Source: a virus (taxonomy: Duplodnaviria; Heunggongvirae; Uroviricota; Caudoviricetes). From it: a DNA stretch of 7,132 bases. Shown here piece by piece: positions 3,001 through 6,000 of the stretch. The stretch lies in the IMG/VR virus record IMGVR_UViG_2711768074_000022; one strand, 5' to 3'. The position numbers were made by a program. The first letter of the stretch is position 1; every line of letters starts with the position of its first letter.

Positions 3001-6000
3001 AGGCACTGCGTCGTTTTGAACTGATGGTGGAAGAAGCGGCGCGTCACGCTGAGGAGGCGAAGAAGAATGCCGGAGAGGCGGAGACGTCAGCGAGGAATGC
3101 CGGCATATCAGCCAGTCAGGCAGAAGAGAGCGCGGCAAATGCTGACACTTCAGCAGGGGAGGCATCGGAGTCAGCCCGGCAGGCGGCAGAAAGTGCAGCC
3201 TCAGCAAAGCAGTCAGAGGAGGCGTCCTCGTCCTCGGCTTCTGCGGCCGCTCAAAAAGCCAGTGAGTCATCACAAAGTGCAGCAGAAGCTGAATTGTCAA
3301 GAAAGACGGCAGAAAGTGCAGCCGGTAATGCAGCCAGGGATGCAACGACCGCAACAGAAAAAGCCCGGGAGTCAGCAGAAAGCGCACAGTCAGCGGAACA
3401 AAGCAGGATAGCGGCGGAAGAAGCCGTAAACAGAATCCCCACCGTGGTGGGACCTCCCGGGCCAAAGGGGGAACAGGGGCCCGCGGGTCCTCAGGGGCCG
3501 AAGGGTGATAAGGGAGAGCGCGGTGACACCGGCCCTGTCGGGGCAACCGGCGAACGGGGACCGGCAGGTGATGCTGGTCCGGCAGGCCCGCAGGGGCCGA
3601 AAGGTGACAGGGGAGAGCGGGGAGAGACCGGTCTGACGGGAAATGCAGGTCCACAGGGTCCAAAGGGAGACACCGGGGCAGCAGGCCCGGCAGGCCCACA
3701 GGGACCGAAAGGAGAAACAGGTGCGGCTGGCCCGGTGGGGGCAACCGGACCTCAGGGACCGAAGGGCGACCCGGGGGAGACACAAATCCGTTTTCGTCTG
3801 GGGCCGGCGAGCATTATTGAGACAAACAGCAATGGCTGGTTCCCGGGTACAGATGGTGCGCTCATCACCGGACTGACCTTTCTTGACCCCAAAGATGCCA
3901 CACAGGTTCAGGGGCTGTTTCAGCATTTGCAGGTCAGATTTGGCGACGGGCCGTGGCAGGATGTTAAGGGACTGGATGAAGTGGGCAGTGATACAGGCAG
4001 AACAGGAGAATGACATGAATATTTTGAGAAAGCTTATGGAGCGTCTGTGTGGTTGCGGAAAGCATGATGACCGTGAAAACGGGGAGTTACTTACAGCACA
4101 GCTGCGACTGGGACCGGCAGACATTCTGGAGTCAGATGAGAATGGCATTATCCCGGAGCAGGCCAGGGTAATCACGCAGGTGGTGATACTGGATGCGGAT
4201 AAAAAGCAGATACAGTGCGTGGTAAGACCGCTGCAAATTCTGCGTGCTGACGGGACGTGGGAAAATATTGGCGGGATGAAATAGTCGACAGCTTCACAAA
4301 AACCGGAGTCCGGCTCCGGTTTTTGTTGTCATGTCCGGTGGATGTTTGTTATGACTCCCTGTGTTTGGAATGAATATTTAATAACAGGTGTCTGGAAATA
4401 TAGGGGCAAATCTACTGGATAGGCTATTGGGGCGTGAGAATCGAATGGAGAGAAGGGCTGTGGCTCTGGAAAGGCAATTAAATGGAGGTGTCGATTTTTT
4501 AAGGAGTGTTAATAACTATTTTCAGAGTGTCATGGCAGAACACAGAGAAAATAAAACAAGTAATAAAATATTAATGGAAAAAATAAATTCTTGTGTATTT
4601 GGAACGGATTCTAATCACTTTTCTTGCCCGGAGTCATTTTTGACATGCCCGATAACGCTGGACACACCTGCGAATGGAGTGTTCATGAGAAACTCACAAG
4701 GTGCTGAGATATGCTCTCTATATGATAAGGACACGTTAGTGCAACTTGTTGAAACTGGTGGAGCTCATCCTCTGAGTCGAGAACCTATAACAGAATCAAT
4801 GATTATGAGAAAAGACGAATGTCACTTTGATTCAAAAAAAGAATCCTTTGTTGCAAGTGATGCTTAATTTTTTTTGTTGGTGTGTTTTTATATTAATAGT
4901 TTATTATAATAGTGCCATGTAAGGATATATTGTCTGAACAATTATTCAGACAATATTTTTTTCTTGCTTTATATGAAATATATAATATTTGGATCCTTAA
5001 TTTCTAACCAAGGGGTCCCATGTTTTTATGTTATGATGCAGCCCATAATTTCGGGGGCTACATGCAAGAATATCTTTTTCTTCGGCGCCTGATTTGCGTA
5101 AAAACGTGGCTGCGCCAGAAGAACAATTACCTTGTGTTTCTGTGAATGGCGGTAACATTTTGTAAGTCGGTATGTTGTTGAGCATTGTTTTTATATTGTC
5201 AGCTGGAATTGATTTTTCTTCATGTAGTGGTGTCGGGATAAGCGTTCCATTTCTCTGAAGTACTTCATCTGAATACAATCGATGTAGCAACAAACTCTGT
5301 TTTGTCTCTATTAATGAGATTGAGCTGATATTGGGTAAGTAACGAATTGATAACTGACTGAGTTTTATTACATTTCCTGAATAAAGATACTCACCTAACT
5401 CTGAAAATTTCCTTCCTGTTATCTTATCTGTATCATCAGAACTAATATTTTCGAACATTCTTACGTCTCGCTCTCCTAAGTTTGGTTTTGCATTATCTTT
5501 TCCATTGTTTTTATATATCCACATCTCTTTTTTTTCTGAAGGAATCAAATATGTAAGTGATTTTACTTCATCTGCAATTTGTTCTTGTTGGATATTGGTA
5601 TTGGCCTTTAACCTGGTTTCATTATACTTTTTATAAAAATCTTCAATGCATGTGAATTTTTGCCCTTGTAGTTTTATAACCGTTTCTTTTACATCGATTG
5701 GAAATTTATTTTGATTTCGCACATTATTTAACTTTTTTAAAAACAAAGAGTCAATGTCTATTCGGGAGCGTTTATCATCACTGTTTATGGCATAGTATTG
5801 GGCTCCGCTCCTGCTTCCCATTCCTGGGGTCCCTGCAATAATAAATGAGTGACTTCTTGTATGTCTGCCATTGAGTAGAGCAAGGGGAGTTTTAGCTGTA
5901 GCCAACCATACAGGAACGGATTTTAAAGATATACCATATTCTTTATGAACAATTCTTCTGGAGACGGGGTTCGTCATTGTTGTTTCATTTGAAAGTTGTT

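Follow-up and report, generated by a model that had tools for sequence, protein, structure and literature searches.

In phages lambda, P2 and Mu, tail fibre assembly genes (Tfa, G and U, respectively; Pfam family Caudo_TAP) lie downstream of the fibre genes. In Bordetella phage BPP-1, the fibre gene mtd is followed by the template repeat (TR) of a diversity-generating retroelement (DGR), which is roughly 90% identical to the variable repeat (VR) of that gene, and a number of trimeric fibres carry C-terminal folding nucleators (the T4 fibritin foldon, collagen NC1, and the intramolecular chaperones of endosialidase and of the T5 L-shaped fibre). Here we analyse a small open reading frame (ORF) of 89 amino acids (aa) that follows directly upon the gene for a collagen-like side tail fibre in IMG/VR virus record IMGVR_UViG_2711768074_000022; the stretch examined, 7,132 nucleotides, is referred to below as the window. 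Fibre and small ORF both end in a Phage_fiber_C domain (PF06820), and the two copies are designated PfC-F (fibre) and PfC-S (small ORF). The coordinates of all features are collected in Table 1.

The small ORF and its domain relation to the fibre are already known, annotated and published. Its orthologues, all 89 aa long, 88-97% identical and positioned 1 nt after a collagen-like, PfC-ended fibre gene, are Sp5 ORF68, 933W L0122, phi24B 'gp59' and AU5Stx1 atfT. The PGAP name is 'phage tail fiber C-terminal domain-containing protein', and GenBank KU977419 (AU5Stx1) annotates the long overlapping form as atfT, 'alternate tail fiber tip'; a literature search for either of these last two terms returned only unrelated plant papers. 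Mondal et al. 2016 (PMC5155283) reported that Sp5 ORF68 has the domain of the fibre C-terminus and that it is non-essential, plaques and lysogens still being formed on K-12 after its in-frame deletion; no signal for frameshifting was detected in that study, whose authors put forward an 'intragenomic reservoir sequence'. The passages of Ghosh et al. 2012 (PMC3368898) that deal with the fibre and its PfC do not discuss the small ORF. The preliminary description of the window, made from its sequence, regarded this module as unexplained and possibly new, but the relation stands in Pfam, in PHROGs and in PGAP names and was discussed in 2016. Nothing material distinguishes the window copy from the Sp5 ORF68 group; it lies behind the EPclA fibre of a long-tailed prophage with NleG/EspW cargo, and the copies of that group behind the EPclB fibre of a short-tailed Shiga toxin 2 (Stx2) phage.

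As previously described, the small ORF starts 1 nt after the fibre stop (TGA-C-ATG, with the stop at 4011-4013 and the ATG at 4015) and has its own Shine-Dalgarno sequence, AGGAG, 6 nt before the ATG and inside the last fibre codons. The protein matches PF06820 over model positions 1-64 of 64 with 119.1 bits (Pfam gathering score, 25 bits) and PHROG 576, an 89-aa 'tail fiber protein' family, over its full length (residues 1-89 against profile 1-89 of 89, E 2.8e-59). Pfam scanned at E <= 1 gave PF06820 alone, without a Caudo_TAP match, and NCBIfam gave no match. BLASTP aligned residues 29-88 of the small protein with fibre residues 366-427 (23/62 identities, 37%; 60% positives; E 2e-11), and the Smith-Waterman score of 104 is far above chance (23.0 +/- 4.0 for 2000 shuffles, maximum 44, z = 20). 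BLASTP, shuffles, Pfam and PHROG therefore all bear out the view of the small ORF as a separately translated, diverged duplicate of the fibre end. At the DNA level the resemblance is lower than the 'roughly two-thirds' estimated by eye: codon-aligned identity is 95/180 or 52.8% (43% at third positions), though above that of codon shuffles (27.6 +/- 3.4%). A local DNA aligner joined only a stretch of ~52 nt, and the repeat finder run on the window does not report the pair. Since synonymous divergence between the copies is saturated, the duplication must be old. The residues common to both (R, GPA, I, NG, P, IT, LD, LQ, DG and W) plausibly make up the fold and trimer core.

Compared with the PfC of EPclA and EPclB fibres, to which it is 37% identical, the small protein is free-standing: it lacks the collagen helix and the acidic C-terminal tail of the fibre, and it has a unique N-terminal arm of 27 residues with a CGC motif. 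The arm is basic (charge +3 over residues 1-17) and, in the low-confidence secondary structure of AlphaFold2 (AF2), consists of a short helix at 3-11, an LCGCGK motif and an acidic disordered linker; the motif is retained in the Citrobacter rodentium homologue. The protein has no hydrophobic signal segment (the maximum 11-residue Kyte-Doolittle average, 1.45, falls within PfC). A Cor/Llp-type exclusion lipoprotein was considered and rejected, as no hydrophobic stretch comes before the LCGC at residues 11-14 and only 4 residues precede the Cys in the C. rodentium homologue; a defence system was likewise dismissed, there being no PADLOC match. The product is a cytoplasmic 10-kDa late gene product with a PfC-family domain. 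A PDB sequence search returned no relative of it, the sole match, to bacterioferritin (E 0.43), being noise.

The true start of the fibre is the ATG at 2700 (MAVKISG, 437 aa) and not the GTG at 2694 (439 aa) proposed by the ORF listing, as judged from the PGAP orthologue and published EPclA. The domains follow in the order PfN (PF08400), an Ala/Glu/Ser-rich PCoil coiled coil, collagen Gly-X-Y, the PfC knob (PF06820) and an 11-residue acidic tail; the last 13 residues, LDEVGSDTGRTGE, have a net charge of -3. Foldon, NC1 and the intramolecular chaperones act in cis, the chaperone domains being cleaved off, whereas the second PfC copy of the window is encoded in trans; Peptidase_S74, the intramolecular chaperone domain, has no Pfam match in fibre or small ORF. 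The architecture is that given for EPclA in the fibre passages of Ghosh et al. 2012 (PMC3368898), according to which the fibre PfC (residues 363-426) is trimeric when isolated and acts as the nucleus from which the collagen helix refolds, and recombinant EPclA made in E. coli without a partner still reaches a trimeric fold that contains collagen. By that account the fibre PfC resembles foldon and NC1 in trimerising autonomously and in nucleating the refolding of the adjacent triple helix from its C-terminal side. For rEPclB, aggregation mediated by the knob has been reported.

Conservation of the small ORF was analysed in two sets of loci. The first, anchored on the small ORF, comprised 80 IMG/VR loci, the window, an E. 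coli locus (L001) and an E. albertii contig (L003), and yielded 85 complete copies; the second, anchored on the fibre, comprised 80 loci found independently with the last 79 fibre residues, 77 of which had enough downstream sequence. The small ORF is intact at 89 aa in 85/85 copies of the first set and in 71/77 (92%) of the second, where three copies are frameshifted and three hit by an insertion sequence (IS) or truncated. Locus counts in IMG/VR are nearly equal for the small ORF (284) and the fibre end (287). The junction GGAGAATGACATG, with the ATG 1 nt after the fibre stop, is conserved in 84/85 copies, and its 28-nt context is identical in 80/85. Synonymous diversity (piS) of the small ORF is 0.12 among 47 distinct sequences, and the ratio of nonsynonymous to synonymous diversity (piN/piS) is 0.12 overall (pooled Nei-Gojobori estimates, here and below). 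This average conceals a strong contrast between the N-terminal arm (0.29) and PfC-S (0.054); the corresponding values are 0.22 for PfC-F and 0.50 for the collagen segment, so that PfC-S is the least variable part of the locus.

Purifying selection of this strength on PfC-S rules out a remnant in decay, and a cassette that acts purely at the DNA level is difficult to square with it. That the ORF is a non-functional vestige of some old duplication or of a tip replacement might have been expected from the dispensability of the gene in Sp5, from the six disrupted copies among 77 (three frameshifts, three IS elements or truncation) and from the decayed C. rodentium copy. That reading is effectively refuted by the selection data, and the 'remnant of a tip-swapping event' considered in the preliminary description is disfavoured, given a piN/piS of 0.054 in the face of substantial synonymous diversity, the intactness of 92% of the fibre-anchored copies though many of the host prophages are defective, and the invariant translation signals. 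The small ORF encodes a translated, functional protein, which is neither a relic nor a silent cassette.

The small ORF does not travel alone. When the window was compared by blastn with the short-tailed Stx1 phage AU5Stx1 (L084, KU977419), one uninterrupted match was found that begins near the start of the collagen segment and ends at 4334, just beyond the hairpin that follows the small ORF, while the proximal fibre half and everything downstream of 4334 differ between the two. A shared segment with differing flanks implies that long- and short-tailed phages swap the distal fibre half together with the small ORF and the terminator in a single unit, following the pattern known for modules of fibre tips and assembly genes. 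In genomic position, then, the small ORF behaves as Caudo_TAP-type genes do (1-nt spacing in 84/85 copies, shared module 3464-4334): like Tfa, P2 G and Mu U, it is a small, late-expressed gene that directly follows the fibre gene, and the distal part of the fibre is exchanged along with it. Unlike Tfa, it is homologous to the fibre's own end domain, and it has no sequence similarity to Caudo_TAP. It is also dispensable, both for fibre folding in vitro, going by the fibre passages of PMC3368898, and for infectivity on K-12 (PMC5155283). The closest complete genome, that of an O157:H7 strain in which this prophage adjoins ssrA, has a tfa pseudogene fragment close to the prophage end, on the far side of the effector cargo (L001 10092-10244, a position not covered by the window). 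This remnant fits a history in which the module displaced the distal part of an ancestral lambda-type stf-tfa unit, and suggests that an ancestral stf-tfa region took up the collagen-PfC-small-ORF module as well as the cargo.

Two natural rearrangements bear on the intragenomic reservoir proposed by Mondal et al. 2016, in which the ORF would mainly be a DNA cassette, spliced onto the fibre by recombination so as to change its tip. In one locus (L085, 1-300, GCA_038404665; two samples), an in-frame deletion via the 10-nt microhomology GGACCGGCAG has fused collagen to PfC-S, in which the shortened fibre now ends; this microhomology is also present in the window, within 3554-3567 and 4107-4120. 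In the other (L086, 2650-3250, GCA_005381265), a 279-bp tandem duplication has created a chimeric 92-aa ORF between the fibre and the normal small ORF. Both events, together with the microhomology in the window, are what a reservoir would be expected to leave. However, at 52.8% DNA identity the PfC copies are too dissimilar for homologous recombination, and the recombination observed between them is rare and illegitimate (two cases among hundreds of loci). Neither an invariant Shine-Dalgarno sequence and ATG, nor an intact frame, nor a piN/piS of 0.054 is needed by a silent cassette, and the small protein is translated (see below); we regard the reservoir as an improbable explanation of the gene. 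Fibres that end in PfC-S, one of the outcomes envisaged at the outset, do occur but are rare (one locus, two samples); the other, a small ORF that accompanies this fibre type, was found intact in 71/77 fibre-anchored loci. Two further DNA-level mechanisms were rejected. As in the DGR of BPP-1, a second copy of the 3' end of the fibre gene lies just downstream, but the copies in the window are only 52.8% identical and the downstream one is a translated ORF under protein-level selection. Mismatches affect all four bases (A 30/48, C 14/35, G 31/63 and T 10/34, counted on the downstream copy) rather than adenines, as a TR/VR pair would have it, and no reverse transcriptase family was found among the window proteins scanned against Pfam. 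An invertible tip switch of the Mu Gin or P1 Cin type does not apply, since the + strand carries both PfC copies; apart from weak collagen-repeat matches, the search for inverted repeats flanking them found none, nor was there any recombinase among the window proteins scanned against Pfam.

Evidence for expression was found in the proteome given in the supplement of a 2026 cryo-EM preprint on phi24B (doi 10.64898/2026.04.10.717836). In the purified phi24B virion preparation, two peptides specific to it, VITQVVILDADKK and ADGTWENIGGMK, are listed with 3 peptide-spectrum matches (PSMs) each, alongside 47 PSMs for the fibre C-terminal peptide GLDEVGSDTGR and 2267 for the whole fibre, gp61. The presence of specific peptides in a virion preparation means that the small protein is translated in lytic growth, and the comparison of 3 PSMs with 47 and 2267 means that it is sub-stoichiometric. 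We take the protein to be a trace component of virion preparations rather than a stoichiometric part of the virion, and to be dispensable under laboratory conditions.

The search database used for phi24B also held hypothetical frameshift fusions of fibre and small ORF ('Fusion_6159_FS', labelled 'Spike or just gp59?'). According to this recoding hypothesis, to which the name atfT also points, some ribosomes would shift frame near the fibre stop and extend the fibre by the small ORF. The frame of the small ORF is indeed open for ~44 codons upstream of its ATG (3883-4014), overlapping the fibre PfC, KU977419 annotates this long overlapping ORF as 'alternate tail fiber tip', and the UGA-C stop context with AGGAG just upstream is superficially prfB-like. 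On the other hand, the small ORF lies in the +1 frame, so that -1 slippage cannot join it to the fibre, and the P-site codon GAA cannot re-pair on AAU, which speaks against a prfB-like +1 shift. The lack of a frameshift signal in the study of Mondal et al. (PMC5155283) and the conservation of an intact ATG and Shine-Dalgarno sequence also disagree with recoding, and in the part of the phi24B peptide list that was covered neither a fibre/small-ORF junction peptide nor an N-terminal peptide appears. Furthermore, in the low-molecular-weight gel slice EA1829 the 'fusion' count (25) exceeds the fibre count (24), being lower or equal elsewhere, a hint that what carries the specific peptides runs in the gel as a free protein of small size. 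A fused product is unlikely.

We propose that the small protein is an accessory factor acting in trans on the distal fibre end by means of its own PfC-type homotrimer, dispensable and sub-stoichiometric; we put the probability of this reading at roughly 0.4. In this scheme, the small ORF is translated by coupling to fibre termination (Shine-Dalgarno sequence in the last fibre codons, TGA-C-ATG), is inherited together with the distal fibre half (collagen and PfC) as a single exchange module, and fills the genomic slot that Tfa occupies in lambda-type phages. The start signals, the domain and the module are seen directly in the window and its relatives. For the protein itself a PfC-type homotrimer is the most likely form because the residues common to PfC domains are retained, and we infer that this trimer may act in trans on the fibre end, aiding its assembly, solubility or tip function. 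In favour of the proposal count the shared domain, the invariant coupled junction, the intact copies with nearly equal locus counts, the selection on PfC-S, the shared module with the hairpin at its end, the two phi24B peptides, the autonomous trimerisation of the fibre PfC, the lack of a signal peptide and the tfa remnant.

Several observations weigh against this proposal: (i) the Sp5 ORF68 deletion is viable on K-12 (PMC5155283); (ii) recombinant EPclA trimerises without a partner, so that no chaperone is strictly needed, to judge from the passages of PMC3368898 on that protein; (iii) the small ORF has no similarity to Tfa-type chaperones in the Pfam scan, where PF06820 was the only match; (iv) trimerisation is known for the fibre PfC alone, and AF2 models of the small ORF are poor (predicted local distance difference test, pLDDT, 52 for the sequence alone and 51.7 with a 12-sequence alignment that included distant PfC-like repeats), as the authors of the phi24B preprint also obtained no confident AlphaFold model of this domain (doi 10.64898/2026.04.10.717836); (v) fibre-PfC and small-ORF variants show no tight co-variation, all four haplotype combinations occurring; and (vi) the trace peptides in the phi24B preparation are at the level of the likely contaminants Lom and Q. 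Points (i) and (ii) and the trace presence in virion preparations also weigh against the alternative tip and the assembly factor considered in the preliminary description.

The main rival is a structural one, in which a PfC-S trimer would be kept on the virion fibre tip as a distal cap or as a second adhesin, required solely on hosts or in conditions outside the laboratory tests. Peptides of the small protein in purified virions are in line with this, as is the very strong conservation of PfC-S, which is of the kind expected of a domain whose ligand or partner is itself conserved; an accessory adhesin could be non-essential on K-12, and the basic N-terminal arm (+3) could dock on the acidic fibre tail (-3). 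A 1:1 cap, however, predicts counts similar to those of the fibre, and 3 against 47 PSMs were observed for tryptic peptides of similar size (11-13 residues). Nor is the small protein ever brought up in the main text of the preprint, which reports fifteen candidate structural proteins (doi 10.64898/2026.04.10.717836), and while variability in a fibre usually peaks at the receptor-binding tip, no part of this locus varies less than PfC-S. We therefore consider a cap or second adhesin unlikely, if less so than the other alternatives. A more speculative reading has the PfC-S trimer docking by its basic N-terminal arms on the acidic fibre tails, which would make it a detachable second head, either as part of a bipartite tip or as a shield holding the knob inactive until release.

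The small protein might also function away from its own fibre, either as a soluble knob that is released at lysis and masks a surface ligand on debris or neighbouring cells, or to the benefit of the lysogen. Its abundance in enterohaemorrhagic E. coli (EHEC) prophages lends itself to such a view (of 5,426 complete E. coli genomes, 698 contain the fibre/small-ORF junction region, the number of places per genome having a median of 12 and a maximum of 17), as do its position at the border of an effector cargo region and its being non-essential for the phage in the laboratory. Yet the protein has neither a signal peptide or lipobox context nor a PADLOC match, its gene is translationally coupled to one for a late structural protein and lies on the upstream side of the terminator dividing tail genes from cargo, and it always travels with the distal fibre half, even in short-tailed phages with different cargo. 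These points make a role apart from the fibre doubtful. Given its constant travel with the distal fibre half and selection stricter than that on the fibre knob, the small gene probably belongs to whatever the fibre does.

The family is narrow. At 90% identity it falls into ~170 clusters, whose listed matches, from E. coli, E. albertii and C. rodentium, are all at least 72% identical; of 1.84 billion representatives, an exhaustive profile search retrieved no more than 89 clusters, most of them E. coli fragments. The region 2694-4330 matches 380 phage records, mostly of Stx1- or Stx2-converting phages, in 296 of which the small ORF was found by tblastn. A scan of one genome per species returned only E. 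albertii and a 725-bp contig labelled 'Xanthomonas pisi' (L002, NZ_JPLE01000138.1), whose small ORF is 93% identical to the window gene; this contig is probably assembly contamination. The C. rodentium homologue is decayed, lies within a decayed prophage remnant and is uninformative. Among multi-repeat profile matches, P0136 (a CarboxypepD_reg repeat protein) and P0161 (a eukaryotic repeat protein) were of little use. Another, the phage-like 565-aa protein P0150 of a metagenome contig (L170 3505-5202), carries, N-terminal to a collagen segment, a tandem series of four partial PfC-like repeats, an arrangement showing that a fibre shaft can contain the C-terminal half of the PfC motif several times in a row. 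No small downstream PfC ORF was found on L170, and the protein says nothing on function.

By ORF and Pfam reading, the window covers the tail end of a lambdoid prophage of EHEC type (Table 1). The hairpin downstream of the small ORF has a minimum free energy of -24.3 kcal/mol (z = -5.3; 0/200 shuffles fold as well) and is a probable intrinsic terminator that closes the fibre/small-ORF unit and forms the 3' end of the mosaic module; the type III effector cargo begins right after it. A GC-rich terminator-like hairpin with a T-run also lies at 2662-2683, between lom and the fibre gene, so that hairpins flank the fibre/small-ORF pair on both sides. PGAP calls the counterpart of the first NleG ORF in the closest genome an N-terminally truncated pseudogene. 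Long ORFs of 114-286 aa overlap the fibre gene in alternative frames or on the opposite strand (2923-3783, -; 3390-4175, -; 3067-3411, +). No sign was seen that these three are genes, and the simplest view is that they arise as a side effect of the GC-rich Gly-X-Y and Ala-rich repeats in the coiled-coil, collagen and PfC parts of the fibre gene. Rfam gave zero RNA family matches anywhere in the window.

Table 1. Features of the 7,132-nt window around the fibre gene and the small ORF
Feature	Position	Strand	Basis or remark
J C-terminus	37-1965		
lom	2036-2635		PF06316
Collagen-like side tail fibre, EPclA type, 437 aa	2700-4013	+	Pfam PF08400, PF01391, PF06820; PGAP orthologue 437 aa
Collagen triple-helix segment, ~111 residues Gly-X-Y	3450-3782	+	PF01391; residues 253-363 in 439-aa ORF numbering; 9-nt periodic repeats
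Mosaic exchange module (collagen segment, PfC-F, small ORF, hairpin)	3464-4334	+	Single 871-nt high-scoring segment pair, 94.7% identity
PfC-F, the fibre's own Phage_fiber_C trimerisation knob	3786-3977	+	PF06820, 123.8 bits, residues 365-428
Fibre acidic C-terminal tail DEVGSDTGRTGE and TGA stop	3978-4013	+	Sequence reading; includes the small-ORF AGGAG 4004-4008
Small ORF, 89 aa, ATG start	4015-4284	+	ORF listing
Small-ORF N-terminal arm, residues 1-27	4015-4095	+	Most variable part of the protein; piN/piS = 0.29
PfC-S, small-ORF Phage_fiber_C domain, residues 28-89 and stop codon	4096-4284	+	PF06820, PHROG 576
Microhomology ACTGGGACCGGCAG	4107-4120	+	Direct repeat D3; pairs with 3554-3567 in the collagen region
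Strong hairpin followed by U-run, probable intrinsic terminator	4296-4326	+	Folding against shuffles
NleG-like ORF	4388-4867		PF06416; first of the type III effector cargo
352-aa ORF	4997-6055	-	Counterpart in closest genome annotated as type III secretion system effector EspW
NleG	6134-6784	-	PF06416

Collagen-like PfC fibres are carried by most Shiga-toxin and effector-carrying EHEC prophages. What the present analysis adds to the published record of the small ORF is modest but concrete, namely the selection analysis, the boundary of the module, the natural fusion and duplication variants, and the peptide evidence from a published supplement. Were the docking of PfC-S trimers as a second head to prove true, the small protein would be a trans-acting factor derived from a duplicated trimerisation knob, forming a class apart from Tfa- and gp38-type factors, with members in essentially all Stx and EHEC lambdoid phages that have collagen fibres.

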